Translations under genes and position numbers: made by a program
Part shown: positions 1 to 52,628 of the stretch, one piece after another
Numbering within the stretch: position 1 is the first letter of the stretch
Layout of the letters: every line of letters begins with the position of its first letter
The notes under the pieces: generated by a model
Told to the model about the DNA's origin: nothing
The model's input: the letters and a program-made list of their open reading frames with translations, nothing else
The model's database searches: none
Assembly (NCBI GenBank): GCA_026770705.1
Contig: JANJGN010000002.1
Span: forward strand, 48,918,001 to 48,982,000
Reading direction: 5' to 3'
DNA: 64,000 nt
From: Isurus oxyrinchus
Taxonomy: Eukaryota

Positions 1-2020
1 GTGGCTACTGGTGACCAGGACAAACCACTGACAACATGGCTACTGACTCCTGTGTGCAACGCACGTACTTGGGCACAGTGTGCTTATAATGAAAGCCAAG
101 CTGCCACATGAAATGAAATGCAGTAGACCATTGGTGTACTGAAAAAACACTGCATGGACTGCTGTGGAGGAGCCCTGCAGTACTCAGTGGAATGGGCGTC
201 AAGACTCGTGGTGGTCTGTTGTAACCTGCACAGCCTCATCATGATGAGGGGATAGTCTTTCCCACCAGCAATACATCAAGCATCAGAGTAGGAGAAGCAG
301 GAGGAAGAGGAGAAGGGGAAAGAGGAAGAAAGGAGCAACCTTGACAGTCGTTGTCTGTCTGTACATAAAGAACTCATCCAAGTGTGATACCAGTAAGTAC
401 AGCACCAATTCCTTATTCACCAACAATCCCATGCTTTACCATCCCTCAGTTACTGACCACAACATTCCCTTGACCACTGCATAAAAATATAAGTGGGCAC
501 AAAATAACAATTCCAAATTAAATTTCTAAAATAAATTGTTCCATATTTCATGCAGAAATTAACTAATCACACTGGTGCACTCCCTTAGTGCCTGTCTTTC
601 ATGAGGCTTTTGCTTGTCCTAGTGCTCCCACACAGTGCTAGCCCACTGAATGGAGCATGCCTGCTGGAAGGCTGCTGACTGACCTTCACTGGGGGAGACT
701 GCGCATGGTCTTGCAGGATGACCATGAGCAGCTGTGAGCTTAGGAGGCCTGGCTTCAGACTGCACCAGTTCAGCATGGGCGGCAGCAGTCTGTCAGGCAA
801 CAGAGCACAAGGGGAGTGGCAGGGGTTGGGGGAGTGGTTGCCACTTGCCCAGGGTGGTGTCTCAGCAATCCTAGTAACCTGTTGGAGAATAGCTGGCCTG
901 TCGTGACACCCTGCAAGCCCATTTGCACACATTTTTCGCAGCCATGATAGCTGAACGCACATGCCAGCAAGCTGACCTCACATTTCAAGTGGAAATTTCT
1001 TGTCCTGTATTGGAAACAGGCATCAGCCATCAGATGCTACGCCATGGTTGTGTCCACATATATGTGAATGGAGTTGGCAACCACTTCCATCATGGAAGGA
1101 TGAGCTCCATTCTCAGTGCAAAGCCCTGTGCCAAGTTGGTGTTAGACTCCCCCTTGCATCTTGACACTGGCCCAATTCACAAAGATTCTACATAACCAAC
1201 AGCGTTCTTCCATAGGCTGCCCCATCGAATAGCTCATCTGAGTCGCCTGCAGCAGAACCGTTTTCAACCTCAACTTCTTTTGAGTTGGCACCTGCACTAT
1301 CCTTGCACCCTGGTCTGGCTGCAGGCCTCTTGTGCTCAGTGTCTCATTGTGTACCAATACCACATCTATGTCATTCTGTAAATGCCATGTGATGTCGGTA
1401 TCTGTGTTGGTGGCAGCGAGTATGTAAACAAGTGGCAATGCTGTGTCTTCATCATCACTCTCTTCTTGGTGTTTTTCCACTGACTGGCCATGTTGCACTT
1501 TGTGGGCATCTGAAAATGTGGGCATATTCACTGACCTTGATCACTTATGTAAGGTCATTGAACTTCTTGTGACGCTGCATCCAGATCCTCGATGTTTGGC
1601 TCCTGGCATTGACCTCCATAACTGTCTGCTCCCATTGTCTTCTGAGTTTGTGTCTCAAGACCTCCTGGCTCCCTGCAGGTACAAGTCACCTTGCTCCTCT
1701 TCCACCACAGCATCCCAGGCAGTGTCCGAAAATCTTGAAGTCCACTCTCTCTGATATTGTGCATTCTTCAATGTTTTCCAGATCAGAGTCAATTGTAGAA
1801 CAACGGATAGCACTTGCTCCAGCCACAATGCACCTCCCCTCTCAGAGATGCAGGCTGGCTTGAAGAAGTGCAGGCTAGCCTTAACTGGTTCTAGCCTCTC
1901 ACGATTTAGGGTCCCCTACTGAGGTAATCATCATATTGAACCGGCAGAGGGTAATCTCATGTTGCAACCTCCTTACCCCAGAGTGGGGTCCTTTGGTTTT
2001 CTCTCCAGCCAGAAATCTAA
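1..2020 (+). mobile_element. Decayed PIF/Harbinger transposon, copy 1 (left part outside window, right end approximate)
   Basis: 1-390 resembles the transposase C-terminus (WLLGD-like start, CCNLH, acidic GAG/GAA tail). The - strand at ~585-1790 carries Myb/SANT gene remnants (reads like KKFNDLT..VK before a GTCAGT donor; ends KDRH*). Colinear with the copies at 40943 and 48493. Confidence 0.8.
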
Positions 2021-2380
2021 TGGTAGTATGAGCTCATTTACTGTAACTGAAGTTGGCAGTGTTACCTGGAGAGCAGAATGTGACTCAAAAGATGAAGGCA
2101 ACTGTTATGACAGAAGTCTTTATTAGCCTGGAGAGTGTTGTAACATGCATAGAGTGAGCAGAGAAAGGTGTGGATTCAATGCAAACTACATCAGTAATCA
2201 TGCTTTATGTAATTGCAAATCCAGCATAAAACTAGATTTTAGTTGGTCTTTAATGAGAGGGAGCGATTTGCAAGGTTTAGTCCCTGCAGGTGATCACCTT
2301 TCAGCATGGTAGTTTGTAAATGAGTAAAAGCAGAGTGCCAATATGCACTGCACCTGGGAAATTCTATGAAGGTTTTCAGG

Positions 2381-2493
2381 GGCCAGGACTTTCCTGTCCC
2401 ACCTGTGGTGGGACCCTTTATGGGTGGGACGGAAAATTTGGCAGCCCAGCAAAATATCCATTGACTTCCAGTGAGAATTTCTGCATCCCGGCC
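2381..2493. mobile_element. Short Harbinger-type MITE
   Basis: GGCCAGGACTTTCC start and CATCCCGGCC end form imperfect TIRs; flanks AGG/AGT; resembles the 57634 element. Confidence 0.5.
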
Positions 2494-8400: not shown

Positions 8401-9487
8401 GCCCATTTCATGCTGGTGATGTGAGTGATTGGCAAAATTTAGACAGTTTTGAACCATGCAACATTTTTCAAAGTTGCTGTTACATTCAAAGCAACAAAAA
8501 AAAATCATTGACACTTCCTGTTAGCTGGTTTCCGTGGTGACGCATATTCCCATGAGAAATTTGATATAATTAAATTAGGCTTCTTTTGATGTCAATAAAT
8601 TAAAAGGATAGGTTGTCTTTAAGGCAGTGATCCCACTTGGATTTAGTATAAACCACAATTTTATGTTTCTTTATAATAGTTATAGAAGTGCCACAAAGAC
8701 ATTAGCTTAAAATTATAGTTATGTTTACCTCCTCTAAATATTCATGCTCATCACACTGTCTAGTGATAGAAAAGTTCTTACATTATTAGGAAAGTAATTG
8801 AAAATTGGCAAGATATAGTCGTTTACACTTAGCATCTGCTTAAATGTAATTTAAAATGAAAAATGTTATCAATCTCTTGATGTTGGCAGAAATACCTTAA
8901 TGACTTCCATTTCATCTATAATATTTTTATTTGAAATATGTGAACGTTATGATTTGGCTTCCCAATATTCCCAATAGAAATTCCTTTTTCATCAATGTGC
9001 TTCCCATATTTTTGATGAGAATATCCTTGCAAAAATCTTCTTGCTATCACATTAATCTGCATTAGTGTACATCTCTTCATAAAACAGACAAGCTACCTGG
9101 GACTTTGGTTACTAATTGAAGTATTTTCTGGTAGAGGGGGAGGCATATGGAAATGTAATACCATGTACATTATTTTGTCGTTAAAATGTTTTTTGGATTG
9201 TTTCATATATGATAGCAATGCATTGAATATGATACTTTTTACTGCTATTATGATTTAAAATCTGTTTCAACATGTATTATAGAGATACATGCACTAGCAG
9301 TTATTGATTATTGTCAAGTTATAGTTCTATAAAATCATTTTTTAAATGTTAAACCGTATGCCAAGCCAGCAGTTCCTTTAAAAAAATAATTTGGTATTAA
9401 TTCAAGTCATCCATCATGGTGAACCATTTGGAAATGAACATTTCTATTTTCATTGTATTTTTAAATGCTATTTTTCTTCTTTTCCAG

Positions 9488-9598
9488 GCGTGCGCTTAGA
9501 TAGAGTACGTGGAGGACGGCAGAAATATAAGCGCAGGATAGATGCAGAGAACAGCCCTTACTTGAACCCTCAGCTGGTTCAACCAGCCAAAAAGCCAT
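9488..9598 (+). CDS. ESRRG: ESRRG internal exon (DBD C-terminal extension and hinge), 111 nt
   Basis: Pyrimidine tract plus ccAG acceptor at 9486-9487, GTGAGG donor at 9599. Encodes [37 protein letters not shown], the ERRgamma sequence. Confidence 0.98.
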
Positions 9599-11034: not shown

Positions 11035-11277
11035 AGGGGTTGCTTAGCTCAGTTGGCAAGATGGTTAGCATGTGATTCCGAATAATGCCAACAGCACAGG
11101 TTTGATTCCTGTTCTGGCTGAGGTAGACTTGGAACTTGCCTTCCCACTCTGCCTTGAGAGTGGAAGGCAATGGCAAACCACCACTGACAAGAAAAATGGC
11201 TTAGGATAAAGCATCAACAGACAATAAGCCAAGGACCCGCCTTTGGGGAGAGCACACATGAATGAATGAATGAATGA
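11035..11277 (+). mobile_element. tRNA-derived SINE with (TGAA)n tail
   Basis: A-box TAGCTCAGTTGG, B-box-like GGTTTGATTCC, (ATGA)n tail, 12-bp TSD ATAGTGCATTCA at 11023-11034 and 11278-11289. Confidence 0.9.
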
Positions 11278-12215: not shown

Positions 12216-12377
12216 TCAACAAGATTGTCTCACACTTGCTTGTGGCTGAGCCAGAGAAGATTTATGCCATGCCTGATCCCACCATTCCGGAGAGTGACAT
12301 CAAAGCCCTCACTACACTGTGCGATTTGGCTGATCGAGAACTGGTGGTCATCATTGGATGGGCAAAGCATATTCCAG
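12216..12377 (+). CDS. ESRRG: ESRRG internal exon (LBD helices 1-3), 162 nt
   Basis: ctAG acceptor at 12214-12215, GTACAA donor at 12378. Encodes (F)[53 protein letters not shown](G). Confidence 0.98.
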
Positions 12378-12732
12378 GTACAAAAAGAAAACCAAAAATA
12401 TCAGCTGTTAAGCATGTTGTAAAACAAATTGCGCCTTTGTGCTTGGTACTGAATTTTCCACAGTTGAGATACCACAAAAAAGACTTTGGCTGCGATTTTC
12501 TGGCTCCACCAGCCGCTGGGATCTCACAATGGGGCAGAAAATCCCAGCCTTTGTTAGCCGCTTAGTTTTTCTAATGAAAATCCACCAGCTTTTACTGTTA
12601 TCACATTACTCAACTGATGAGCATGTCTAGTTAACATACTTTTGATTTTTATCAAGATTTATTTTGGTGGTGATCATCTGTAGAATGCATTTGGTATGCA
12701 TTTGTGGTTCTGACTGAGCTGAGGAAAACTAT

Positions 12733-12807
12733 GGGCCAGATTTTTTGCCACAATGGAGAAACTCGCCATCATTGCAAAAGTAGAAGAAATGCCCAAAAAT
12801 CCTAAGT

Positions 12808-12839
<32 letters not shown>

Positions 12840-14183: not shown

Positions 14184-14529
14184 TATGTTTTTGTTGATGG
14201 GAATGGGAACTCGCAGGGGAAATGAGCTCACTCCCATTACCCACACAATCTCAGTTCATCATCACCACCACCTCACTCATTGATTTGTTAAGTAAAACAT
14301 ATTAGCGTGTGGCCCCACCCAACTTTTTATAGTTGAGTTCCCTGATTTTGAAATATTTGTGTGTAAAATTACAGTTGTAAAAATCCACCTCTTAACCTTC
14401 TGAAACTTAATGGCAACTGTAGCAGATGTAAATTTCACTGAGTTATATTGGACATCATTGTTATTTGTATTTGATCTGCAGTTTCATTAACCTTTCGCAG
14501 ACTTGCAGCAATATTTCTGCATAAACAAC

Positions 14530-16939: not shown

Positions 16940-17602
16940 GGGGTAAATTTTTTGCTCGGCGGGCAAGCGCATGCCCGACCTGACCGAGCGTAAAATGATG
17001 TGGGATGATGTTGGATAAGCGTCCCGATGTCATCATGGACTCACGCAATGTTTCGGTTGGTGGATCCGTGCCGGAGTTGGCAGCGTACCCGCCGACAATT
17101 AAAAGGCCTATTAAGGCCATTAAAAAATTAATTAAGTTAAATTTTTCGCTGCCCGTCCAACCTTATAGTTGGCAGGCAGATGAAAAGACCAAGCGGCCTT
17201 TGCAATTTTTTGGAAGCCTCATCCATGGGTGGGATGAAGTTTCCAAAAGGAAATAAAAGTAAAATAAAAGCTTTAATTTTTCATTAATAACCCATACCCC
17301 TGCTCATGTGACAGAGCCACATGAGGGGTCATGTTTCATTACATTTTTAATTTTAAAAATATTTTTTCCTTATCTCTGAGGCAGCTCTGTGCCTTAGGGA
17401 AATTTTGAAGTGTGTACTCGAGTGTATGCATGATGGTCATGCTTGCCTTCCTCCCCCTGCCTGCACAGGCAGCACTGAGCACAGCCGCTCCCGTTTCACG
17501 CTGAGTGGGCCTTAATTGGCCCACCACTGTGAGATTGCCTACCAGTGCTGATCGCGGGAGGCAGTTGGGAGGAACCCGCCTGAGATGGGTGAAATTCTAC
17601 CC
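16940..17602 (+). mobile_element. Harbinger MITE (~660 bp) related to the 25725 element
   Basis: GGGGTAAATTTT...GAAATTCTACCC termini; both subterminal regions align with the ends of 25725-29285; TSD not clean. Confidence 0.85.
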
Positions 17603-23745: not shown

Positions 23746-23852
23746 AGTATTTGAAATGCAAAACTATTTATGTACAAACCTTCCCCGCATAACTTTTCAA
23801 CACATCAAGGTTCATTATTTTCCTTTCCTTCGTCCTCCTCTTTCCATAACAA

Positions 23853-24517
23853 TGGCAGGATTCTCCCCTCGTCGGGCGGGTGTGGTGGGCAGGCCCAGGA
23901 ACCGCTGCGAGATGGGCCACTGCCGGCGATTGGGCTCTAGCCACGATTCCATGCTGGCTGCCTAATTAACAGCCGGCCAGTGGGAAATGCACACTGAGAG
24001 CTTCAGCGCTGCTGGCGGGAGAGTGAGCGCTGAAGTCTGTGCACGCCATGGGGGAGCGCGCACTGATAGCTCCCTGAGGGCACAGAACTGCCTTAGGAAG
24101 TTGAAGAGTTTTAAAATGAAAAGTAAACATTTTACAAATGATAGAAACATGCCCCCACATGTGACTCAGTCACATTAAGAGGGACATGTTAAAAATTCTG
24201 TAAACAAAATAGTTATTTTTTTTTTCAGTTGCCCGCCATGGATGAGGTTTTGTAAAAAAAAATGCAAAGGCCGCCTGGCCTATTTGCCTGCCCGCCAACC
24301 GAGCAGTTGAGCGGGCAGTGAAAAATACAAATTAGTTACTTATTTAAGGGCCTCTTAATTGTCGGCAGGTACGCTGCCGCCTCTCATGCGCACTCGGTGA
24401 CCGAAAGATCGGTAGAGTGCATGATGACGTCAGGGAGCTCGCCCAACATCATTGCCCACTATTTCACTCCTGTTCGGGTTGGGCGCACGTCCGCCCATGG
24501 GACGAAAAATTCTACCC
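23853..24517 (-). mobile_element. Harbinger MITE, inverted relative to 16940-17602
   Basis: TGGCAGGATTCTC...GAAAAATTCTACCC termini, TSD CAA/CAA, internal sequence is a diverged reverse complement of the 16940 copy. Confidence 0.9.
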
Positions 24518-25432
24518 CAAGCTTCCATGTTTGGTCACGACCTCTATCATTGTTAGTCTGTGCTCAAACAATGGAGTTGAGTGGGATTGACCAGGGTTGG
24601 TTTGACCTCCAATTTTCCCTTCTCAGCAGGAAAATATTTTTTCCTTGCATAGCTTGGTTGTAATTGGGGAAATTTTGATCGATTCCACTTCATTACGCAG
24701 CCTGTTTGGAGTACCGTTGCACTGTGAAGCTGAGCCCATAAACCATCAAAAAAACATGATTAACCTTAGTGTTAAACAGCATCCAGCAATGGAACTGATG
24801 ATATTTGGATTGAGTCTTAATGGATTATTTACTTGAGTTGCATTAATCCTTCTGTCGGCTAATTTCACATTAAAACACACTTCATTTTTAGAAACAATAA
24901 AACAGAAATTTTCATCTATTTGATTACATTTTTTGAGGGTTAGTATTAATCAGGATGGGCGTGAATGCTGTCAATGCTGACAAGTGAAAGTACAACTTAT
25001 GTTCACTGATGTAAATTTAGATTTTTAACTGTGTGGACTGGAGACTGATGCATTGCATCAAATCCTGTACAGTTGTGCCATTGGTTGCAGCTTGAGTACA
25101 TATCCATGGCTTCTCTCTGTTCACACCATTATTGAGTAGTGATGACAGAATATTACCGATGTGTACTAAAATTTGTGCACAGAGTGCTGCTTATTGGAAC
25201 CTAGCTGCTAGTGAACTTTGAAAAGGGCTCACTAGTAGACCCTTTATCACTGGAAATTTGTCTGTGCATCAGATGCAGTATAACTACAACTGATGCTGAG
25301 TGCCAGCAGTACAAATATCACTGCAGAGTTGGGCAATAGTATAGCCACAAAGATCAGAAAGCAAAAGCATCAAATTCAGAGTATAGCTGGGGAGCACAGA
25401 TATAAGTCTTAGCAGGTCACCCTTTTTAGTTA

Positions 25433-25628
25433 AACAGAAACAGAATTACCTGGAAAAACTCAGCAGGTCTGGCAGCATCAGCGGAGAAGAAAAGAGTTGA
25501 CGTTTCGAGTCCTCATGACCCTTCGTCAACTCTTTTCTTCTCCGCCAATGCTGCCAGACCTGCTGAGTTTTTCCAGGTAATTCTGTTTTTGTTTTGGATT
25601 TCCAGCATCCGCAGTTTTTTTGTTTTTA
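25433..25628. mobile_element. Short palindromic Penelope-derived element
   Basis: 70-bp inverted arms (25433-25502 / 25524-25593, 3 mismatches); 14-bp TSD ACCCTTTTTAGTTA at 25419-25432 and 25629-25642. Confidence 0.85.
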
Positions 25629-25860
25629 ACCCTTTTTAGTTACATGATCAAAGTAGAAATGATCTTTTTTGATAATAAGTGCTGAATTTTCTGAAGGACG
25701 ATTAAAGAAGTGTAGTGAATCCAAGGGCAGAATTTTTCATCCTGTGGGTGGGCACGTGCCCAACCTGATTGGGAGTAAAAATAGAGCATGATGACGTTGG
25801 GTGAGCGTCATCATGCACTCGCGTGATATTTCACTCAGCAGGCACTTGCGGGTGCTGGAG

Positions 25861-26880: not shown

Positions 26881-27212
26881 CTACCAAAGATCGGCTTCAA
26901 ACGCATGCCAGGGATGCCGCCTCCATCCTGGATGTTTGAAAGGATCCTTTCATTGAACACAAAGAACATTCAGTGCCTGTGCAATAGAGTTCAGAGCTAC
27001 CTATGTCCAGCATTACATACTGGCGTACCCTGCACCAATGAAATAAAAAGGTGAAGCATACTCAGGAGGTCATGACGACAAAAACACAATTTATGTAATT
27101 CTGACAATTCAATAATCTTAACAGAAATGTTTCTGGTATTCAACACCAGACCAGTACACATAAAGTAAACAAAAATAAACATAAAATCAACTGTCACCTG
27201 TCCCTGTTGTGC

Positions 27213-29031
27213 TTATAGTGCCTTTAAATTATGTTTGCGCGTGCTACATCTAGGTGCTCCCCCCTTGCTGGTACCGGCATTGGAGAGAGCCTGCTGACTT
27301 TGCTGTCTTGTTGGCCTTGATGACCTTAGCAGTCATCCTCTGGCCAGTGGAGCCTGTGCTGGCCCAGCCTGGGAGGGAGCGGCCAGTGCCAAGGCTGGCA
27401 TTTCCTCAGTCGCCTCATCAGATGCCATGGTCATTGGCAGAGGAGTTGCTGCTGTCATCCAGAACGCCCTGAGAGGAGCCTACAGAGATGACAGGCAATT
27501 CATGTGCCAATGTGAGATCACTCTGGACCTCCTGGCACACTATTGATGGATGGTCACCAGCTGGGATACTGGATGCCTCATCCATCTCTCACACTGACAC
27601 TGATCACCCAGTGCCTGTGTGAGGGCTTGTACGTCTGAGCGCATCCCCAGGAAAACCTCATTCTGTTCCTGGAGCTGCCTTTCCTTGAAAGTTGCCACTT
27701 TCTCAATGGAGGAGGCAGTGTGCTCAGTCATGATGGTCATGCAGTGCTCATTCTCTGGTACCATGGTACGCAGACCCTCATGGTACCCTCCCGCTGGACG
27801 CCCAGCATCTGCTGCCTAATGGACAACTCCAGAGGCTCATCATCAGCCTTCAACTGAGCATTGTCCTGGTCCAAAGCAGCCTTCCAACTGCCGGCGCCCT
27901 GGGAACTCTCTGCTTCTGCCTGCACCTCAAGCGATTGTGAAGTGCCCTCACCAGTGTGCACCGATTCTAGCCACCACTCTAATGCCCACCAATATGCTGG
28001 TGCCCAGTTCAGAGAGCGGGTGAAAATTACACCCAGTGGTCCCTCCAGTGTTGGGGGTGGCCCTTCGAGGTCCAGAGAGCGATTGCCTGCTGGCGAACTT
28101 AAAAGGAAGAAGAAGGACATGTCATTAGTTAAAGTCATCATATTGTCATTGTCACTATGCATGTCAGGCACCCTGGTGAGACAACGGATAATCTGCAGGA
28201 TGGTGGCCTCATCTTCCAATGATCAATGGCAACTCCAGGTTCGAGGCTCACATCAATGAAGAGACTACACTAGAATAGTTGCACAAGCCGAAATTCTCAC
28301 CTCTGTGCACTGCACCCTTACCTTCGTCTGGCATCCCTGTCTCTCCAAGCACGGTTGCATGTGGGGCATGCCGGCTCTCAAGCTCTAGGGCTTCTTGCTT
28401 ATGCCTCGAGGGGATTAGGAGGCTAGCGGGGCCTCCACCAGTCAGCAACCTTTCTATTTTGTTGTGGGCCGTCTTCTCCTGAAACAACAGAGCAGCAGTG
28501 ATTAGTCCACTGTCTACCTGCAGCCCCATTGCAGCCTGGCCAACCCCAGCTGAGGAGCACCTGACAGGGCACAATGAAGGTGTGGCCCTTGAATGGCAAG
28601 GCACTCAGTCCAAGCAGCAAGGGCTCACTCCTTTGGCCAGCTCCGGTGTGATTGATAGTTGGTACTCAGACTCTAGCACCCCTGAGGTCCATGGTGGGGG
28701 GGGGACGGCCACACCTTAACACTTCTGCACATTGACCAATACCAACATGGTACTCACCCTTCCTGAGCACAGAAGGTAATTGAAGCGCTTTCAGCACAGC
28801 ACCCAGGAGCGCCACACCACGTCACGGCTGCTGATCAGTGCTGCCACCTCCTCCCAAGTCTTCTTGGTGAGGTGCAGTGGAATCCTCCTCAAATCCCTGT
28901 GGTCAAGGGTGTCCCACCTGGCAGTCACCTGCTCCAGGAGGATGGTGAGGCACTCATTAGAGAAGCAGGGGGGCTGAGTGCCCACCCGACCTGCCCTCTC
29001 GCCTGCCGTATCCAGCTGCACTCGGGTCCAT
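27213..29031 (-). pseudogene. Harbinger Myb/SANT-like (trihelix) DNA-binding protein pseudogene, 3 exons
   Basis: ATG at 29031; exon 1 to 28758 (PCFSNECL..LL..V...W..VA..I......RSW..C*KRFN; GTGAGT donor); exon 2 28478-28301 (EKTAHNKIERLLTGGGP); exon 3 from ~28095 to TAA at 27213. One frameshift in a C6 run and an internal stop in exon 1. Confidence 0.85.
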
Positions 29032-32000
29032 AGTGCCGGCTCAGGGAATGTCCTCCACAGCAGCCTTCCAGAGGCTGTCTGGGCTGCTTTTAAACTGGCT
29101 GCTGCGTTGCCATTGGACCCGGCAGCCAACAGGCTCCTGCCCCTGCACGGCCCTTCCCGGCCAGTGCGGAGCCGCGTTTCACGCTGGGTGGACCTTAATT
29201 GGCCTGCCAGCATGAATCGCGGTCGGGGCCTGATCGTGGGCAGCAGTCCGTTTCGCGGCCATCCGATGAAGGGAAAATCCTGCCCCAAGAGTAGTTCTCA
29301 AATCACAGCTATCTGATTCTAATAATAATAATTTCTGGAAACCTTTCTTCATCATTGGGCTTCTATGGTAAACGTGTCACCAGTTCTGCTCATACAAGCA
29401 TTCTTTACTTCGAAGAGGAACGCCATTTTGTTTTACAAACCTTGATTGTCTCAGTAAACAAGGAAATTATTCAATTGAATCAGAAATACTTTTTTTGGTG
29501 CACTATGTATTAAAGTTAATAAATTGTGTTTCTACTGTATTCCTGTTCTTAGTGCTAGAGGTTCCTACAGGACACTCCTGTTCTGCTTTGCATTTCTCTT
29601 TGCTTCTGACTGGATTTCAGTAAAACTCTGGGATTCAGAATAATCACCATTTTTCTGTAGATAGGAGTAAGTTAGAAATTCAAATCATCTCACATATTTA
29701 TGTACATGTATGCATGTAATCTGTAAACACAGGCGTAGATTTTGGGAGCAAACACTTCACTATAGTTGTCAAAGTGTTAAATAAATTTATAGCACAGCTA
29801 TGTCTATGATTAAGTAAAAAGTTTTAGGAGAGAAATTAGTTACAAAAGTTTTTGGATATTGTCCCATATATTTATAAAATATCAGCAGTACTTTAGATGG
29901 GGAAGTAAAGGAGCTTGGATTTTTGACAGCTCTAAATGCCATTAAACAAAAAAGTAATATTGCTCGCCTCCTTAGTCTGAACAAACAAGCTGCCACATAT
30001 TTTTAATATCTATTTCCTCTTCACTTGAAAGCGTTGTTTTTCAGCCGTTTTTCTAGAATGTCAAAGTCAATTTAATACATTTCACTATGCTGAATAAATC
30101 AGAACCGAAATCCTTGCTAAAAGTGAAAATTTGATTTGCTAAAAGGAGCTTAGGGCAACTATTAATCAATACATCCAGTGTGTCAGTGCTGAGGCCCTGA
30201 TAGACAGTGATGCATTTGGATATTGGTTGAAGCAGATGGAGGCTTGCCGGAGAGGGTTGTGGCTGCTGGGGTGTTCTTGGTAAAGTCACATTCAATTCCA
30301 TAGAGAGCTTGTCATCACCTGAGCTGAAACAAACCTTTCTAAATCAGCTGCTCATCAATTTAAGCAGCCCAATCTCCTTAGCAAGTGTTCTAGATATTGC
30401 TACTCTGTTTATTATACAGCAATCTTACTTGTTCCATTCACTCAAAGTGCACATTTTCTCTCTGCCTGTTTTGCTCACCATTTCTCCCCCACTTCAGTTA
30501 TTTGGTCTTTTGAGAATTAAAGAAGGGGCAGTGCAGCTTGATTCTGGATCACCCCGTTGATTTTGAAAGGATTTTTTGTAATTGTTGATTAAAACTAAAA
30601 CAAACAATGAACAAGTAACGTGGCTAATGAGAAGCTATCAACGGCACAAGGCTACATAAATTAGCTATTTCCATAAGTACACAAAGGAGAATCCGATCGA
30701 ACAATGGTGTTACCGCAGAGAGATTTGGAGGAAAAAGCAAGCATGTCTTTCATTGCCTATGAAAAGAAGTTATAGAACTTACTTGGGCTAAGCATCAAAA
30801 TCTCTTAAGTGCACAGTAATCATTTCTCCTGCCCATTTGCTCCAAAAACATTCCATTGTTGTCGTGTGCTCTATGGCTGCTTTTGCCTGCAGATTTGTTC
30901 ATTGATTTATTTCTCTTAACCCCCATAGACTTCTAAAAATTCTTCTGCACAAATTGATCTGGCTACCCAATTCAAATAAAACTTTAAATTGTTAAAGGAT
31001 TTCACAGCAGCTGTCACCGGTTATAGTTTTTCCCCAGCAGTTCCTTTGTTCTTTAACTCTGTGAAACCTCTATGTATGATCTTACAAGCAGCCGAGCTGT
31101 GAAATCAACCATACAAATCGAGCTGCTAATAATTGTGTATTGAAGAAGCATATAAACACTCTTTAAAAACAATAGTTACCTAGAGTAGCACCATTTAGTT
31201 TGTGATTACTATTTTGTGCAATCATCCCAAACCCAAGTGTAAAAATATGTTTACTCTTTGAGGATTTTTTGGTCCAAAACTATTTCTGAAAAGAAGAAAA
31301 AACAGTTCAAAATTGTCAAAAAACAGTATTACTTGCACCAGCGGTACTGGAGTTCCATGTTCAGGTATACAAAACCAGTTCAGACCAGTACCAGTCATTT
31401 CCAAATTTTACTTTTTTTTTCCCCGGTTGGTGCTCCATTTTGCTGTGATATTCTGCTGTGACACAGAATGGTAGCATGTGGGATTGTTTCTTTATTTCTC
31501 CCAAACAAGGAGTTCATCTTCTCATTTATAGTGTTGGGGAAGCTGTGTCAAATGCCAAATGCCTTTTCCTAGAGAACAAGGGAAAATCATAGTTCATGTT
31601 CCCATCACAGGATCGTGGAGGAAGCAGGGTGAGGTTCAAGTAGAGTACAGTAGAGTACAGTAGTTGGAAGTGCGTGACCTGATCTAGTTAACTAAATAAC
31701 TAAGTATTAATTCCATGTGTCTTTAATGCACTACTTTTCACAGCTAAGGTGGATCTGAACCTGCTTAACCTACATGAGAAAGGATTAATTACCAGTACAG
31801 AACAGTGTTAAAATGAGTCAGCACATTTCCAGCAAGGTACATGTTGACCTGGCTAGACGGTCTAGTAAATGGGGATAGGAGGTGTTAATGGCAAGGTTGG
31901 CTTTACTATAGGAGGGAGTCAGCAGTATTGAACCTGCCTCCTCTAATACCCCTATAACAACCAGATAATTTGCCAATTTAGGACAGTCCAGAACATTTCC

Positions 32001-40900: not shown

Positions 40901-41087
40901 TCCTCTCCCTGTCCAAAGTACAATTAAAATAAAGAATACATTGGATGAGAAATTCAGGTCATTGGCACCATTTTTTGGGTGCCACAAGTGTCATTAGAAT
41001 TCCAAGTGGTGTCCATGTCACACATACACAGTGGTTGCAGGCATTTGCTCATTCACAGTGAGCAGCCATGGTGATCAATCAGATGTA

Positions 41088-41306
41088 ACTCTTTTGAGTA
41101 CAAACCCGTTTCCATCTGTTTCAGATGAAGTTACATTGTTTTGCCATTGTGAGATTTGAACTCTTGATACTCTTTCGAGCACAAACCCATTTCCATCTGT
41201 TTCAGATGAAGTTACATTGTTTCATAGTTTGCCATTGTGAGATTTGAACTCTCGATCTTGGGGTTACAAACCCAGTACCATAACCACTTGGCTATTCAGG
41301 CCAAGC
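41088..41306 (-). mobile_element. Short tRNA-Thr(TGT)-derived SINE, one full unit plus a tandem 5'-truncated unit
   Basis: On the - strand: A-box TAGCCAAGTGG, anticodon arm CTGGG-TTTGTAA-CCCCA, B-box GAGTTCAAATC; 14-bp TSD ATCAATCAGATGTA at 41074-41087 and 41307-41320. Confidence 0.88.
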
Positions 41307-41749
41307 ATCAATCAGATGTATACAGGGCTGGTAGATCTTGATGTTAGTTAGCGTGCAAAGAGGGGCATTTAGGAGTCAACTTTCAAACTAATATCATCTC
41401 TTAACCTCTCACACCTGAACACACATACAGCAGCTGAAAGGACATTCCACTGGTATTATTTAAAGCAATCATCAGCTACTTACTATCAGTTGCTGGTTGA
41501 TTTCTTATGACTGTTGTTGAGATTCTACAAGTGTTTGGTGCTTTCTATAGTCCTTTTCAAGTTGGAGAAATCTGCAGGAGTGATGTGGAAAGTGCTGAGG
41601 ACTTATTGCTGACTTTGAGGTTGCTGCACAGACATGTGCACGTGAGTCGACATTGCCCTGACAGTACAACATGATTTTGAAGAATGAGAAGAGAGAACGC
41701 AGAACAGGACAAGCTACCGGAAGAAGAAGGGAAACACTTGTACCAGGAT

Positions 41750-42720
41750 GCCGTGCCCACTCAGTGTTCAGGGAGCAGCTCTCTTAACTGAACCACAGCA
41801 AGAACAATGTGAGGCACCTACTATCTAGTAAGGACATTCTCACTGAAATGTGCCATCTGCTACAGCTATGGGTGCAACCTCAGAGCTGGCAAGAACCATA
41901 TCGTCAGAGGCTGTGAAGGTGGCCACGGCTATGGATCTCCATGGATCTTACTTCTTTCAGGCTGGAGTTGGAGATATTTGCAACATCTGGCATTTTGCAA
42001 TGCACTGTTGCATTAGTGAGGTCACTGAAGCTCTCTATTCAAATAGAACCAACTATATTTTGTTCTCTATCTTGCCAGAGGCAAGCAGGCAGAGTGAGCA
42101 TACAGCTTTGCAAGGATTGGCAACTTCTCTATGGTGCAGGGTTCCATCGACTGCATGCACATCACATTGTGGGGGCAGATGTCAACTCCAACCTATTCTG
42201 GAATCAAAAGGGACCTATTCCCTCAGCATCTATCTGGTGTATGATCACAGACAGCAAATCATGCAGATCAACAACTGGTATCCCGGCAGCAGTCATAATG
42301 CTTTCATTCTGTGGTGGTCCGCTATGCCAGCTGCATTTGAGCCACCACAGTAAACCAAACGGTGGCTGCTGGAGAACAAGGACTATCTGTTGGTGGCATG
42401 GCTAAGGATACAGGTGCACAACCCATGCACATATGCACGGCATGCATATAATGAAAACCGTGCTGTCACACAAAATGTGATGGAGCAGATCACTGATATG
42501 CTGAAACAATGCTTCCACTGCCTAAATTACTCTGGAGGAGCCCTACAGTACTCAGCTGAATGGGTCTCAATTATTGTGATGATTTGCTGCATGTCATCAA
42601 GTGAGGACAGCCCTTGCCACCAGCTGCATGGTGAGCAGGAGTTTGAGGAGGAGAAGGAAAGGAAGTGAGAAGGCATTTGAAACAGCTCCTCTGTGCTCCA
42701 ATTGTCTGTGAAGAACTCAC
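41750..42720 (+). pseudogene. Harbinger transposase pseudogene
   Basis: AVKVATAM..HGSYFFQAGVGDIC, QGSIDCMH, YPGSSHNAFIL and MLKQCFHCLNYSGGALQYS across several frames. Confidence 0.85.
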
Positions 42721-43442
42721 CCGTAAAATACCAGTAAAAACAGCCCAGTGCCACCCCTTGCCTTCCTTCTGTCACTAATCATCACAGTGTTTGGCTGCAA
42801 TGCAACAAGAGGATTTACTACAAAATAAGTATTCCAAAGCAAATTTATAAATAAAATCATGCTATATTGCATACAAGAGCCAACTGCGCATTCCCTCAGT
42901 GTCTGTCTTGCAGCTGCCTTTGCCTGTCCTCATGCGTTTACACAGTGCTACCTCAGTAGTTGCAGCATGGCTGGTGGAAGGATCTTCAGTGGAAGAAATT
43001 GCAGATGGCCTTGGAGGATGACTTTGAGCACCTCTGGACTTTGGATGTCCAGCTGTGATTGGAACATCTTGTCATGGATTGATGCAGCTGGCTGGCTGAT
43101 GAGGGACAGAAGGGCACTGGTGGAATGACAGGGGTTTGGGGGAGGGGTGGGGGTGGTGTAGCAGTGGTGATGCGGTGGTGAATGCTTTCTTCCTAGGTGA
43201 GGAAAGAAGGTTTGTGCTCCATGGAACCATTGCCATTTCTCTAGGGCAGCGCCTCAGCAATCCCAATAATCTATTGGAGGACAGATTGCTGGACTGCTAT
43301 GGCAGCCTGCAAACTCCTTTCCGCAATTGTAATTCACACTGGCTGAACTTGGGGCAGAAAGCCAACCAAGTCTGGTCTTCTACTGCAGCACTCATATGTT
43401 GGATGCTCAAGCTGCAGCATGAGCCATCAGACACCGTAGCAT

Positions 43443-45756
43443 CGAAGCAGAAAATGCCAGAAATACGCAGCCGGTCAGGGAACATCTTTGAAGGGGGAAA
43501 CAGAGTTAACATTTCAGGACAATTGACCTCTATTCAGAACTGCAAAAGGTTACAGAGGTAACAGGTTTTAAGCAAGTGCAGGGACAAGGAGTGGGGAAAA
43601 TTGTACAATTGGATGGAATACAGGAGAGATTAAATAACACACGGTATGATAGTGCCAGGCAAAAGGCAGTGGTAATGGGACAAATAAAGAAACAAATGAC
43701 GGATCGAGAGGAGCTATAAATGACAATTCCAATATCATCTCCCAACAGCTGTCGTCCAAAAGCGATCTGAAATTGTTGAACTCAGTTGTTGAATCTGGAA
43801 GGCTGTAAAAGTGCCAAATCAAATGCTGAGGTGCAGTTCTTCAAGTTTCTTTTGAGCTTCTTTGAAACGGTGTAGAAGACCAAGAACAGAGAGGTCAGAA
43901 TGAGAGTGGAGTGGAGAGTTAAAATGAAAAGCAACCAGAACACTTGCAGACTGAAAGGAGGTGTTCCACAAAGTGTTCATCCTATCTGTGTTTAGTCTCC
44001 CCAGTGTTGAGGAGACCTCACCGTGAACGGCAACAGTGTACTAAATTGAATGAAGTACAAGTAAATTGCTGTTTCACCTGGAGGGGAGATGGGGGCCCTG
44101 GACATTGGGAAGGAAGGTTGTAAAATGGCAAACACTGCATCTCCTGCGCTTGCATGGGAAGGTGCTCTGGCAAGTGGAGGGGTTATTCATGGTGATAGAG
44201 GAGTGGGCCTGTGTGCCTGGAGAGAATGGTCCTTTCCGGAAACTGAAAGGAATGGGGAAGAGGAAGATGTGTTTGGTGGTAGAATCATGCTAGAGGTAGG
44301 GGAAATGGTGGAAGATGATCCATTGAATATGGAGGTTGCTGTGGTGAAATGTGAGGATGAGGAACCTCAATGTGGTTCTTGGAGGAGGAGATGCAGTGAG
44401 AGCAGAAGTGTAGGAAATCAAATGAACACAGTCCATTGCAATGGAGGGAAATCCTCAGATGAAGGAAAAAGGCACACTGGTATGGATGATAAAATCCATA
44501 AAACAAATGTGATGGAGACAGAGAAACTGGGAGAATGAAATAGAATCCTTTAGGAAGCAGGGTGAGAGGCACTATCGTCAAGATAGCTATGGGAGTCAGT
44601 GGATATTAGTCAACAGCTTACCCCAGAAATGGAGACAAAGAAGTCCGGAAAAGAAAGAACAGTGTCATAGATGAACAATGTGAAGGTGAGGAAAGGTAGA
44701 AATTGAAACCCAACTTTCCAATTTAAGGTACAAGCATAAATCAGCACCAGTACAGTCATCAGTGTACTGGAGAAGCAGGTGAATGATGGGGCCTGAGTAG
44801 GACATAGTATGTTCTACATTTCCCACAAAAAGGCAGGCATAGCTGGGAACCAAATGAGTCCCCATGGCAACACCTACTTAGGGGAAATGAGTGGAGTTAA
44901 AAGGAGATGTTGTTCAATGTGGGACCAAGATTGGTCAGGTTGAGAAGGCTGATGATGGCTGGGGATGGTTGGGCCTCCATTCAAGGAAGAAGCAGAGTGC
45001 TTGCAGACCATCCTGATGGGGAATGAAGGTTTAGAAGAATTTGACATCCATGGTGAAAAGGAGATGGCTAAGACCAGGAAACTGGAAATGGCTGAAGTAA
45101 TGGAAGGCATCAGGAGAGCAACAAAGCTATAGGTGGGGAGAGACTGGACAAAGAGAGAAAAAAGTAGAGTTGAGAATAGGAAGAAATCAGTTCTGTCTGG
45201 TATGAACTGGCTAAAATGATGGGTTTACCAGGGCAGCCCTATTGATGGACCTTGGGAAGGAAGTAGACACGGGTTGTGCAGTACTGGGGGACTGAGGTTG
45301 GAGCCCATGGAAGAAATACCTCCAAAGGAGATGAGGGGGTCAGCAACAGTCTAAAAAGTGTCACTGACTGTCCTGCACTGTGTACCAATGCAACCCGAGA
45401 AACATTGTTTCATCTTTCAATTGGGTTCTTTACAGTCATTCAGACTCAACATGAGTTCAATAACTTTGAACCTTAATCTCTGCCCCCGTTTTTTTCAGAA
45501 GGCAGATAATATTGGTGATACATCTGTTTCCACCTCCTCTAGACCCAGATTTTGTTTCTTAATTATTGCATTATCTCTGTTTTCACTTTGCATCATCATT
45601 CCTTTAGTAATTTAGTCTCTGTTGCATTCCACACTGTCACAGGCCTTCCCTTTTCTTCTTACCCCATTCCCAATTCTCTGGCTTTGTACTTGCTTAAAAC
45701 CTGTTACATCTCTAACCTTTTCCAATTTTGACAAAAGGTTATCAGCCTCAAAACAC
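43443..45756 (-). mobile_element. Penelope-like retroelement (RT plus GIY-YIG) with inverted 3' duplication
   Basis: - strand RT motif MGTHLVPSYACLFVG...QYTDD (44665-44865); GIY-YIG remnant FTCTSFNLV...TGETKHR...FVEH (~43960-44065); C-terminus LQP...EFNNF occurs on - at ~43770-43830 and again on + at ~45400-45470; termini 43530-43590 and 45680-45725 are inverted copies. Confidence 0.88.
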
Positions 45757-48700
45757 TGTGAAAAGCTCTGTGCCAAGTTGGTGCTGGACTTCTTCAAGAT
45801 CCTTGACATTAACTGCAAGCTTTCTGGCAGGCTTCCCACTACACCAGGCACATTGTTGCGCATAACTATCAGCATTCTTTTTTGTGCTGCCCCATCAAAG
45901 TCATCATCAGAGTTCTCTCCAGCTCTGAGCTCTCTTTCTGCGACCCTGCCCACTGTCCAGCTGGTACCTGTGTATCCTTACCCCCTGCCCTGGCTGCAGG
46001 CCACTCATGCCCCATGTCTCACTACATGCATATCCCACCTTATCTATTGTCTAGGATATGTGCTAAGTCAGTACCTGAGCTGATGGCAGTGAGTGGTGGT
46101 GCTATGGCTGCTGCTTCAAGTCTCTTCTTGGTAGACCTGCACTGCCTGGCTAAGTTGCACTTCTTGGATATTGGAAAGGAATAAGAGTTAGGTTGTGATG
46201 TGGGGAGTCTGAGGGCGGGGGTGGGTGGGGGAAAGTAAGACATGCATGTTTCTGCTATATTCAGCTTGTGAATCAGGAGAGATTGAAGGTTGAGATGGAA
46301 GTGGGGTGTGAGAAAGAGGATTAGACATGAGGTTGCCTTCATCTTCAATGGTTTCAGTCCTGTTGCTGGCTGTGAATTAAACAACAGGTGTTTCAATCAT
46401 GGCAAGAACCATCTCCTTCAGGGGTGTCAGGACATGCAGGTTCACCTGTTCACCTCCAATTAGTTCCTACTGCTTCTGGTTGAGTCCCATCTTGTCCTGC
46501 AGGAGAGAGGGCAGTGTGTCAGTAATTGTCATACAAACTCTTCAGGTGACGTGCTTGTCATGCTTAAATAGCTGATAGTGTGTGCAACCTGTGAAAAGTA
46601 GTGGGGAGGTTGGCAGAAGTATTAAGTGTATGAGGGTGAGGTGAGCCATTTGAAAGTATAGTATGAGACGTGATTGATGGGGATTGTAGGTTGGTGGATG
46701 GAGGGGGTATGATGATTTTATCCGTGGCCGAGGCTACTGGTGCAGTTGGTAGGATATGGCATTAAAAGATGCACTCACTGACCTTGACCATTCATGCGAG
46801 TTGATTTGAACTTCTTGCAGTGCTATGTCCAGGTCCTCAGAACTAGACTCTTAAGTACTGATCCCCACAGCTATCTCCCACTGTCTGTTGACCATGTGCC
46901 TTGAGGGCCTCTTTCCCCCACAGCAGACAAAGGTCACTTTCCTTCCTTTCCACCTCCTCCACCAAGAATTCCAGTGGAGCATCCAAAAACCTTGGAAGCT
47001 CACGCTCTCCCCTGCTGTGCCTTTCCTCATTCTTTCCTAGGTCAGATTCTCTTCAACCAGCACCTGCTCCAGCCACGTTGCATCTCTCATTTTAAGAGTT
47101 GCAGGCTAACTTTAAGCAGCACTAGCCATTCAAATATTGGCCCCTTGCTGAGATGTCCAGTGAACAGACAGCTCAGTTAGCATTGGCTAAGTGTAGAAAT
47201 TATTCAAATAAGCAGGCAGCACAAAGTTGGCATGCTGCCTTCATTGCCTTTAACAGGCATGGGTTAATCACACATCGCAATCCTCATGCCTGTTTTCAGG
47301 GTCTTCCCCACTTAGCCCCCATTGCATTGAGCAGGAACCTAAGCCATGTATATACAGGCTGCCTGCAGATGGCTTACCAAAACCTTTTAACTGACTAGTA
47401 TCATGAACATTAACATGTTTCATATCTGTTCCACTCGACCAGCAAACAGACCTAATGAGAAAGGAGCTAGCCTGCTGATGAACAGACAAGCATGACAATT
47501 GTTCCAAATAATTAATTGATTGGTCCTGCTATTCTAACTTAGAGCTAATTTAATTGGGGTAAAAACTGTTTACTTTGAGAAAGAAACATTTGTTTCCTCT
47601 TTCTAAATAAACGTGCCTTTTAAATAGTTACTTGCATATACATTTTGCCCTTCACACATAGATGCTTGGACATATTTAGCTGACTGAAGTACATCACTTC
47701 ACCTATCCAAAAGTGCTAGACAAGTGCCGCTGGCATTAGCATCGCTGCTGAGGCCTGCAGCAGAACTGGGGAGACTTTGGAGTTTCCACACACGTAAATG
47801 TCAATACAGTGCCTTCTCCATCATCAGCACTAAATTCACTTTGATGCCTCTTTTCTTCTCTTTATTGATCCCTTCATGAGAACGTAGATTTGTATCTGTT
47901 AATTAATGCATCCTGAAACAGCGTTTGTATTAATCAGTCAGATAAGAAAAATTGGATGCCTGCGCCCACATGACAACCGTAAAAGTGCTGTCCTGATAAA
48001 ATCATTGATAGGCCTCAATAAAAAAAGTTCCTCCTTCCACTCAATAAACTAATCATCCTGCTTTTAATTATTAGACTGAAGATGTGTGTAGATTGGGAAT
48101 GTGTAAATCTAATTATTTACCAACAGCAGTGTCTAGGTAGGGGAAAAAAAAGCTCCATCACAGAAAGGTGCTGCAGGCCACACATACAGACCATCTGGTA
48201 CTTCTGTTGGGTGGGGGTGGTACTGTGGGAGTATAACAAAAGAATGAACCCTTTTCCGTTTCCCGTTGAATCAGATGTGAAGTGGTATACTTGTCAGCAA
48301 GTTGTATCACTATTATAAAACATTTCTGAGGAATCTTTCAGAATTTGAAAAGGGAATGCCAATTGACATTATCAAACAAAGAGACCATTTGGCAGCATCC
48401 ATCATGACAGCAAACAGCCATGATCTTTGCAATGTTTCTGTCATGTTATTCATAAAGACTTTAAATGGTGCAGGCTCCAGATAACAGTTACTGGGTGAAA
48501 AATTGGAACCATTTTTGCCAATGTTTTGGGCACTACAAGTACGCTTAGAATTCTAAAATGGCATCTGCACACTTGTCCAGCAAATGGTACTGGCTGCCAT
48601 ATTGGTGAGGACATTCACATGAGTGCAGTGAATGACTGCCGGAAGGCAGAGCCTGAAGATCATGACATCAACCAGCATGCGATGCTGATTTGACATTAGT

Positions 48701-50145
48701 CCTGCCATTTTGGAGTTCAGCTCCAGCTAATGCCTGCTCTTAACCTCTCAAAGCTGAGCCTGCATTCAGCTGCATGAAGGGCATCCCACTGGTGCTATTT
48801 AAAGTGATCATTAACTAATTGCAAGTTAGTTGCTGGTTGATTTATTCTGGCTATTGCTTCCATTTGTTGGGGGGTTTTTAAAATTGGTTCAAAGCTACAA
48901 AAGTTGACAGGGAGCAGTGTGACAGGTGATAAAGGTGTATTTTCAGACTTCAAGCCTACTGTACAAATCAGTTGCTTCTAGATATAGATGTACTAGTAGG
49001 CATTCCCCTTTTGATACAGCATGACTAGGGGAATGAACTGAGGCAAAACAGAGCAGGATAAGTTACTGGAAGAGGGAGCAGGAGTAGGAGAAGGGCTGTC
49101 AGCAGGATGCCATATCTAGACAGAGTATTGAGGGAGCAAATCTCCTACCTGAACCACAGCGAGAAGCAATGTGTGAGAAATCTACACTTCAATAAGACAT
49201 CTTCACTGTAACATGTCACCTGGCACAGCTGCAACTTCAGAGCAGGTCAAGCCACATTGCCATTGGCTGTGAAAGTAACTATGGAAATTAATTTTTGTGT
49301 CCAGCTCCTTTCGGGCTGGACCTGGAAATATTTGTAACATCTGCATTATCTTGTCCACTGTTGCACAAAGGAGGTTACTGAGGCTATCTACTTGATGAAA
49401 GCTAACTACATTCCATTCTCTTTTGCCAGCAAGGACTAGGTGGAGTGAGCACATGGCGTTAATAGGATTGCAGTTTCCCCATGATGCAGGGTGCGAGTGA
49501 CTGCACACGCGTCACTTTTCATGTGTTGTATGTTAACTCTACAGTATACTGGAACTGGAAGGGATTCCACTCCCTCAACATCCGTCTGGCGTGTGACTGT
49601 AGACAGCAAAACATGCAGGTCAATGCCCTGTATCCTGACTGAGAATCGGTGCCTTTATTCTGTGCCAGTTCACTGTGCCATCTGCGTTTGAGTCAGTATG
49701 GCAAACCGAAGGGTGGCTGCTGGGTGAAAAGGGGTTTCTGCTAACGAAATAGCTGGTGACTCTGGTGGGCAACCCATATACACATGGGCAACATGCATAC
49801 CATGAAAGCCAAGCTACCACCTGAAGTATGATAGAGCAAATCATTGGCATGCTAAAACAATGCTTCTGCTGTCTAGACCCCTCTGGAGGAGCCCTGTACT
49901 ACTCAGCAGAGCATTTATCAAGATGCGTGGTGGTCACTGCCTGCTGCACAATCTTGCCACAATGAGGAGAAAGTCCATGCCATCAGATATTTGATAAGTA
50001 ACTGAGGAGCAGGATCGTGAAGAAGCAGGAGGGAGGAGGCAACCTAGTCAACTCTCTTCTGGCAAGGCTGCCCATGGAGAACTTGGCTGAGTGTGATACC
50101 AGTAACTGTAACCCAATTTCTCATTGACCATCATTCCCACACTTT

Positions 50146-50643
50146 GGGCTGAATCTTGTGGAGGCAACGAGGGTCTCAGCCGCAGGCTAGAAAGTTGGTG
50201 AGATCCCTGCATTGCTTCTTTTCTGGATGGCCCATCACATCTTGTGCCACTCAGGCACTTAATAGGATCAAGGACCCCGGGAGCGGAAGTCATGGCCCCC
50301 AAGAGCCGTGGGCCATTCAGAGGCCAGCATCTCTTTTGTACGCAGCAGTGCCACTGGGGAGGCAGTGGCTGCTGCCAGTTTTGCACCCACCTGAGAGCTT
50401 GGATCGAGGATGCACTCAGGCACAAGGTAGTGATAGCGGGAAGGGAGTTACCAGGAGCCAGCAATCTAACATGCCATGGTTTGCTTCCCTTGCTCCCTAC
50501 ATGGTGAGACTCCTGCCTGGGCTGGGTTAATACCAGCTGTGGCAGGATGAGGCCCTTAAGTGGGCATTAATTGACCATTTAAGGACCTCAATTGGCGGTG
50601 GGACAGGAAAGCCATCCACAAGGGAAGGCATAAGATTCCACCC
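50146..50643. mobile_element. Harbinger MITE nested between the two genes of the host Harbinger
   Basis: TIRs GGGCTGAATCTT / AAGATTCCACCC (10/12 match), flanks TTT/CTT; contains the GGCCCTTAAGTGGGCATTAATTG motif seen in similar form in the other MITEs. Confidence 0.75.
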
Positions 50644-52628
50644 CTTATCTTCCCTGTCTCTATCACAGTGTCTATTTGACCACAATGCAAAAAATAAAAG
50701 GCACCACAAAATAAACATTCCAGACTCAATTATGATGAAATCCTACCATATTTCATACAAAAGTCTACCAATCAGCCTTGTGGAATCATTTAGTGCCTTT
50801 CTTTTGTGTGCCTTTACCTCCCTAGTGCTCCTATGCAATACTACTCCAGTGGCTGCAGTGTGGCTGATGGAAGGCTGCTGACTTGCAGTGGAGGAGACTG
50901 CAGATGGCTTTGGAGGATGATCTCAAACAGCTCTGGCCCTAGAAGGCCTTTCTTTAGATTGTACTATTTCAGCATGAGCGGCAGAAACCTAGGCTGACTG
51001 ACTGACAGGCAACAGCAATGACACTGGCAGGGTTAGGATGAATGCTATCTTCCTGAAAGAAGATAGCAGGTTTGTGCTCAATGGAACCCCATCAGTCCTC
51101 CTTGGCACGACCTCAATAATTCTAGTAGTCTATTGGAGGACAGATTGCTGCATTGCTATGACATCCTGCAAGCCCCCTTTTCCACTGTAGTCCACAAACA
51201 AGATTACAGCAGTCTGAGTTTACAAGGTTTCTCTATGCTGCCTCATCAAAGTCCTCACCGGAGTCCTCTGCAGTGGAACCCATGTGCAACCTCGTTCTGC
51301 AGCAAACTGGTACAAGTGCTATCCTTGTTCCCTCCCATGGCTGCAGGCCACTCAGTCCTGGTGTTTTGCCATGTGCAGTTCCTGTCCCTACGTTATCCTC
51401 CAATTTGCATGCAGTGCCACTATCTGAGCTGCTGGCTGCAAATGTGAAATGGAGTGACAGTATAGTTTCAACATTACTGTTTTGGCTATGTTGCATTTGA
51501 TGTGTATCTTAAAGGAGAAAAGCAAAAGGTTAAGATAGTTGTGTGAGGAATGGGGGAGGGCGAAGTAGGGGGTGCATGTTTACACCATCTACCATTTTTA
51601 AATCAGAAAAGAACATATGATAAGGGGAAAGTAGGATTTTTAAAGGAGGATAAGTATTGTGATCCTGTTATCTCCAATGGTTTCAGTCCCTCAGCTGGTC
51701 AGAAATGAAGCAATGGCTACCCAATAATAGCTACTATCGCCTCTTTCATGGCAGTTAAAATATGCAGATATGTTTGTCCCCCTTCACTTAGCCCCTGTTG
51801 CTTCTGGTTGTACATCGCCTATTCCTGCAAGAGAGAGGGAAGTGTGTCAGTGAGTGTTGTGCAATCTGTTTGGCTGATGTGGTTGTCATGGCTGAATAGC
51901 TGGCACTGTGTGCAGCCTATGAGATGTGACTGTGAGGCTTGCAGTGGTGCTAAGTGCGTGTGTGATGTGAAACATATGACTGTCAGGTATAAGTCCCAAT
52001 AAAGAGAAATTGTTGGTAGGTACTGATGGGGTATGGTGAAATGGACAGTGTCTGAGGCTCGTAGTTTAGTTAGTAGGTTATGCCATTTAGAAATGCATTC
52101 ACTGACCTTGACCACTTGTGTGAGGTCATTGAACTTCTTGCGGTATTATATCCAGATTCTCTGCCTGAACGATGCTCGCACTGCCTTCTGAGCATGTGTT
52201 TGGAGGGCCTCCTGGCAATCTATAGCCACAGGATATCTCTCCTGCCTTCCATCTCCTCCACTCAAGCCTCTGGTACAGTGTTCAAAACCATTGAAGCCTG
52301 CTGTCTCCCGTGTTGTGCCATTATTCAACATTTCACAGGTCAATTTCACTTCCAACGTAACTAGCCAAACCTGCTCCAGTCATATTGCACTGCCCTTTCA
52401 CGCTGTGCAGGCTATCTTTCAGCACTGCTAACTATCCTTAAGTGATGTGAGGCACTCACGATATTAGCCCCTTTGCTGATGTGTTTAGTGGTTTGCACTA
52501 GCTGGTCACTGAAATCATTGAAATGTCTAGGCAGCACAAAGTTGGCATGCTGCCTGCATCGCAATCAGTGGGTCTGGGTTAATTGCACAATGCGATCACT
52601 GAGTAGTTTTCAAGGACTATCCAATTTA

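Follow-up and report, generated by a model that had tools for sequence, protein, structure and literature searches.

A perfect ERR response element in old Harbinger copies within ESRRG of Isurus oxyrinchus, a probable by-product of the end of a transposon exon

Background

Vertebrate PIF/Harbinger transposons combine a DDE transposase with a Myb/SANT trihelix gene (PMC9392472, PMC9179366). No Harbinger was found in the elephant shark, and a check of other cartilaginous fish has been urged (PMC9179366). The stretch analysed here, 64,000 nucleotides of Isurus oxyrinchus DNA (contig JANJGN010000002.1, positions 48,918,001 to 48,982,000; hereafter the window), lies in ESRRG, the gene of estrogen-related receptor gamma (ERRgamma), and carries three decayed Harbinger copies that each hold a perfect ERR response element of nine letters, the 9-mer. 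An earlier note on this DNA proposed either a feedback loop wired by transposable elements (TEs) or a transposon under receptor control. The present analysis indicates that the 9-mer is very probably a by-product of the end of an exon of the element and probably decays with no part in the control of ESRRG.

The consensus of the ERR element is TCAAGGTCA (PMC5732273), and autoregulation of ERRgamma has been proposed in mouse (PMC5732273, PMC3899246); ERR autoregulation was not found in the available sections of PMC9390996. Nr5a2 binds the Esrrb motif at similar affinity (bioRxiv 2022.05.17.492379), so that the site is not specific to ERRgamma. Repeats of the SINE B1/Alu type carry Nr5a2 and Esrrb motifs at the time of mouse zygotic genome activation, and CUT&Tag and binding assays show their occupancy (bioRxiv 10.1101/2022.05.17.492379). 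The long terminal repeat (LTR) families RLTR9E and RLTR13D6 are enhancers with ESRRB motifs and chromatin evidence, and even in them the motif is as frequent in non-enhancer copies; among mouse TEs at large, the presence of a motif, that of ESRRB included, is a poor predictor of enhancer activity (PMC6544436). In the literature searched, which left most subscription journals and Repbase aside, no paper was found on Harbinger-borne ERR sites or on the present Harbinger family.

Origin of the 9-mer

The word TGACCTTGA occurs at 1532-1540, 46779-46787 and 52103-52111, the only perfect matches in the window when both strands are searched, and each of them has the full sequence TCAAGGTCA of an ERR response element. 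The earlier note had placed them at one homologous spot of three Harbinger copies of common ancestry, and both points hold. The copies are old and were inserted independently. A second half-site, AGGTCA, lies 14 bp from the TGACCT half-site in two of the copies, again as described there. The sites are as follows.

1532 to 1540, minus strand: TCAAGGTCA of copy A; Ile-Lys codons closing Myb exon 1 and 4 nt at the start of the predicted intron
1552 to 1557, plus strand: AGGTCA half-site, the opposite-strand reading of the Asn-Asp-Leu codons in KKFNDL
46779 to 46787, minus strand: TCAAGGTCA of copy B; Val-Lys codons and predicted donor, the predicted intron running from 46782 to 46497
52103 to 52111, minus strand: TCAAGGTCA of copy C; Val-Lys codons and predicted donor
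52123 to 52128, plus strand: AGGTCA half-site; reverse complement of Asn-Asp-Leu codons

Three 9-mers in one window are a mild excess. Dinucleotide shuffles of the window hold 0.89 on average, with 4 of 100 reaching three, and the genome rate (50,624 9-mers in 4.98 Gb) leads to an expectation of 0.65 per 64 kb (Poisson p=0.028 for three).

Read on the minus strand, copies A to C encode, with some decay, W-x-Q-x-x-K-K-F-N-D-L-x-x-V-(V/I)-K just before GTCAGT. In 53 aligned genomic copies, the Myb-like exon 1 ends in V-V-K and borders a 286-nt GT..AG intron with a pyrimidine tract, after which exon 2 resumes in frame as D-K-V-A-H-N-R-R (the acceptor was located in copy B). From this family alignment and from the Myb and transposase domains reported below, it follows that TCAAG closes a pair of codons and that GTCA opens the predicted intron. 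The codon reading and the alignment thus support the earlier observation that the 9-mer overlaps the predicted donor of Myb exon 1, and we infer that this donor was used in splicing. The second half-site is AAT GAC CTN, Asn-Asp-Leu, on the opposite strand. The second Harbinger family of the window, starting at 25725, is without the 9-mer, as had been noted: its architecture is alike, its codons are different and its exon ends in S-G-R|GTGAGT.

The everted repeat was also considered as a designed element and rejected, both half-sites being intact in 13 of 89 copies, about the product of the single rates (27/89 and 37/89). A second acceptor-like site is found about 600 nt beyond the 9-mer in the family alignment and suggests three or more exons for the Myb-like gene.

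It seems, then, that TCAAGGTCA arises by chance where the closing Val/Ile-Lys codons of Myb exon 1 meet the predicted splice donor. Constraint on active elements would have fixed the word in the ancestors, and the present copies would be drifting, with about a quarter of several thousand still holding it. A local cluster of independent insertions occupies the 3' half of ESRRG. The survival of three words in one window is likely a post hoc coincidence.

Spread and retention across the family

The family is large. A 17-mer upstream of the site has 397 exact genomic matches (2 for its control), three distant 17-mers of the family have 434, 139 and 274, and the 16-mer formed by the 9-mer and seven intronic nucleotides has 938 (3 for its control). 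Capture-recapture, a rough estimate from 9/79 and 9/23, gives about 8,200 copies, some 2,400 of them with an intact 9-mer, or an estimated 5% of the perfect 9-mers of the genome. At the level of sequence, the family has indeed scattered the word genome-wide, as was suggested earlier. The reversed control word is commoner than the 9-mer (56,419 versus 50,624), which leaves no genome-wide surplus of the latter.

Retention was followed in three samples. Sample a comprises the upstream 17-mer copies, 89 of 397 of which keep the 9-mer at the exact spacing, in a set that includes other families; a subset was made from 90 of the first 100 listed by removing the window copy and 10 other-family copies (n=79), and there the 9-mer and CTTCAAATG are each found in 23. 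Sample b holds copies anchored on both flanks (90 of 116 taken, one duplicate removed, n=89). The 9-mer is present in 25 of these, CAAGAAGTT in 26, AAGTTCAAT in 24, AAGAAGTTC in 22, CAATGACCT in 16 and TTCAATGAC in 15, and paired tests of the 9-mer against neighbouring 9-mers give p=0.75, 0.10 and 0.14. Sample c consists of 90 copies anchored 210-600 nt away, minus two ESRRG-locus copies and one duplicate, and was filtered for both 30-nt flanks being at least 65% identical. Here the counts are 11/45 for the 9-mer (15/86 unfiltered), 19/43 for ATCTTCAAA, 13/41 for TGGATGCAG and 12/41 for CAAGAAGTT; 11 of the 42 nearest non-overlapping 9-mers equal or exceed the 9-mer.

Across the three samples the 9-mer is level with adjacent CpG-free 9-mers, which are retained at 17-44%, and family-wide retention above neighbouring sequence, as expected of a co-opted TE enhancer, is not seen. 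The earlier note had named decay at the background rate as the result that would speak against its proposal, and this is the result in each sample (89/397, 25/89, 11/45). The donor-shifted word AAGGTCAGT is retained in 18 of 47 copies of sample c, better than the word holding the ERR-specific TCA, and such excess in retention as there is tracks the donor side, not this TCA. Within the word and outside it, G and C are lost more quickly than A and T, and the most frequent broken form, TCAAGATCA (8/89 in sample b), is a simple G-to-A change in the core.

It would be extremely unlikely, on these counts, that an ERR regulatory network reaching across the genome came from this family, with selection acting on a considerable fraction of its copies. 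Such a network could draw on the roughly 2,400 intact sites, about 5% of all perfect 9-mers, and SINE B1 plays such a part for Nr5a2 and Esrrb in mouse embryos (bioRxiv 2022.05.17.492379). However, there is neither an excess over adjacent 9-mers in the three samples nor a genome-wide excess of the word.

The ESRRG locus

The exon at 54561-54827 agrees with human ERRgamma at 87 of 89 residues (169 bits versus 139 for ERRbeta), which identifies the host gene as ESRRG. Its exons in the window are the following.

9487 to 9597, plus strand: coding exon, end of the DNA-binding region; bounds approximate
12218 to 12379, plus strand: coding exon, start of the ligand-binding domain; bounds approximate
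54561 to 54827, plus strand: coding exon of the ligand-binding domain; agrees with human ERRgamma at 87 of 89 residues
57944 to 58186, plus strand: last coding exon

The exons for the zinc fingers are located outside the window, 17-20 kb upstream. These positions make all three 9-mer sites intronic: the one at 1532 is in the intron preceding the 9.5-kb exon, and those at 46779 and 52103 share a 42-kb intron that spans 12.4 to 54.5 kb. In each of copies A, B and C, the Myb gene runs antisense to ESRRG. Two further ERR paralogues are located at C19:642328 and C31:22269434 (79% and 66% identity to the ESRRG exon). A fourth family copy with an intact 9-mer (plus strand, C2:48983433) lies 1.4 kb beyond the window, shortly after the final coding exon of ESRRG.

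Several observations weigh against the by-product reading. A profile search of 264 kb around the window finds seven copies spanning the site, a real cluster when set against one in 200 kb of control (20 evenly spaced 10-kb tiles of the same arm; the one copy is intact). Five of the seven are intact, compared with 0.27 in the family, although the p-value of 0.018 is post hoc, the window having been chosen for three of them; of the two broken copies, one reads TCAAGGTTG and the other is deleted across the site. Two of the 89 genomic matches to the 17-mer with the 9-mer fall in the window and are the closest pair in the list. Over the wider element region, the 9-mer is kept at 0.24 versus a median of 0.13 for CpG-free 9-mers (14 of 137 non-overlapping ones at or above it); it stands at the 94th percentile of the CpG-free 9-mers of the region in the unfiltered sample, and its retention of 0.28 exceeds the 0.19 expected from base composition. 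The 16-mer of 9-mer and donor is twice as frequent as the next intronic 16-mer (938 versus 467 exact matches; 9 versus 5 of 79 copies). Finally, family-wide neutrality is compatible with selection on a handful of copies.

These excesses of the 9-mer and of its 16-mer are read as constraint on active ancestors, because the donor-shifted word is better kept and because sub-lineages differ: the intron start is different in 9 of 79 copies, so that sub-lineages diverge just downstream of the 9-mer, and they also differ at third codon positions (0.80 versus 0.85-0.86). The same facts bear on the proposal that the active transposon kept the word, besides its role in coding and splicing, as a receptor site (for ERR, NR5A or the like) tuning its own expression. 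The word is part of the consensus and common to sub-lineages that differ just downstream of it (938 versus 467; another intron start in 9/79), and Nr5a2 has similar affinity for the Esrrb motif (bioRxiv 2022.05.17.492379). However, codons and donor account fully for the word, its better-kept letters are on the donor side, the second family is without it in spite of the same structure, and the site is about 540 nt inside the element, in its coding region. Self-tuning of this kind would be very improbable.

The cluster itself is what co-option would draw on, one or more ESRRG copies having become intronic enhancers bound by ERRgamma in a feedback loop, with drift in all other copies of the family. 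This is judged very unlikely, and no better chance is given to its more specific form, in which the splice junction spelling an ERR site would have been co-opted several times in ESRRG as an autoregulatory enhancer cluster. Five of seven local copies keep the site versus about 27% family-wide, copies A and C are perfect at both the 17-mer and the 9-mer in spite of only 76-78% identity to the consensus upstream, and the autoregulation proposed for ERRgamma in mouse (PMC5732273, PMC3899246) also speaks for it. However, the window was picked for its matches; beyond it, the site survives in two of four local copies (p=0.30), and the density of copies, 4 in 400 kb, compares with 1 in 200 kb of control (p=0.46). 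A further 200 kb in the 5' direction contain no family copy, and the single intronic copy in the 110 kb examined of the ESRRB-like paralogue reads TCATGGTCA, i.e. has lost the site. Moreover, a motif is a poor predictor of enhancer activity in mouse TEs (PMC6544436). The loop and the receptor control of the transposon that the earlier note envisaged are unsupported, the 9-mer decaying at the background rate in the three samples and both half-sites being accounted for by protein code and donor, and its interpretation as a whole is partly supported.

Local duplication was considered as the origin of the ESRRG cluster and is ruled out, since pairwise identity among the copies in the site region is 63-75%, which marks them as separate old insertions. 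Contigs of organism B span copy B, so this insertion is shared; with 21 differences in 1249 nt (1.7%) the two sequences are too close for a judgement on nine letters. Elsewhere, in 90 kb selected because of clustered matches, C1:49003901-49076723 (73 kb) holds five perfect family sites, four of them via local duplication. At the same place, five copies of one family member with 90-94% identity lie in 60 kb, and four of the five keep the 9-mer.

The ESRRG cluster is genuine and only partly explained. All apparent support for selection, however, depends on how the window was picked, and when many windows are scanned, some will by coincidence unite the gene of a factor with that factor's own motif.

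The Harbinger copies and other repeats of the window

Four Harbinger copies were delimited.

1 to 1930, strand not assigned: copy A, truncated at position 1 of the window; remnant of the transposase side up to about 440, minus-strand Myb gene from about 1930 to 555
25725 to 29300 (right end approximate), strand not assigned: second-family copy; exon-1 end at 28757, GGAAGG|GTGAGT, without the 9-mer
41366 to 47340, strand not assigned: copy B; transposase remnant on the plus strand (about 41850-42660), Myb gene on the minus strand; split by about 2.2 kb of unrelated inserted sequence (about 43500-45740)
48706 to 52630, strand not assigned: copy C; transposase side 67% identical to copy B over 1.2 kb, Myb gene on the minus strand

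Both hallmarks of PIF/Harbinger elements, the transposase and a second, Myb/SANT trihelix gene, are found. Positions 42354-42665 of copy B match PF13359 (DDE_Tnp_4) above the cut-off (E=5.5e-6). Of six sister copies whose frames are open, three match PF13873 (Myb/SANT; E=1.1e-7, 0.002 and 0.004, one above the curated cut-off); the 70-aa frame tried from copy A of the window has no match. One end of the element, GGGGGCTAAATT, is sharp in 16 copies; a search for terminal inverted repeats found no end matching GGGGGCTAAATT in copies B or C. The target duplication of PIF/Harbinger elements is a 3-bp TWA. The trinucleotides flanking the 16 ends are rich in T and A, with TTA or TAA in just 2 of 16.

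The insert of copy B (43500-45740) has 73-nt inverted arms at 43526-43598 and 45667-45739 (78%). Beside the second-family copy, 25432-25594 holds 71-nt inverted arms (96%) with a 21-nt spacer and resembles two head-to-head repeat ends. A young repeat is present at 41082-41306 and 63546-63689 in inverted copies 22 kb apart with 94-97% identity, and contains a short tandem duplication at 41088-41222. Related short repeats at 17074-17526, 24256-24383 and 29175-29209 share blocks of 35-98 nt and are possibly non-autonomous elements.

Implications and comparison with known systems

If true, the feedback loop would show cleanly how coding and splice sequence of a DNA transposon can become the feedback enhancer of a receptor's own gene. 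As matters stand, an old high-copy Harbinger family holds an estimated 5% of the genome's perfect ERR/NR5A words, and its intact and broken copies form a ready set for the comparison of binding. Some of the sites could bind ERR, NR5A or related receptors in open chromatin, and binding is not function. The case also advises caution, since the reading frame of an element may create, as a side effect, a motif that appears in the consensus of a TE.

Like described PIF/Harbinger elements, the family of the window has two genes, for a DDE_Tnp_4 transposase and a Myb_DNA-bind_5 protein; unlike them, all copies observed in this genome are decayed. LatiHarb1, a Harbinger of the coelacanth, reportedly has enhancer activity. 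Its likeness to the present family is that of a high-copy Harbinger in a slowly evolving vertebrate (Smith et al. 2012, cited in PMC3787270). The thousands of copies in this genome contrast with the absence reported for the elephant shark (PMC9179366). The parallel with RLTR9E and RLTR13D6 is that of a TE-borne motif of the ERR family proposed as the seed of an enhancer; those, however, are LTRs with chromatin evidence, unlike the Harbinger copies of the window. The likeness to SINE B1/Alu is closer in form, a repeat whose consensus holds the TCAAGGTCA word and spreads it. Occupancy has been shown there, whereas the Harbinger word is known as a motif alone, a by-product of coding and donor sequence without excess retention.

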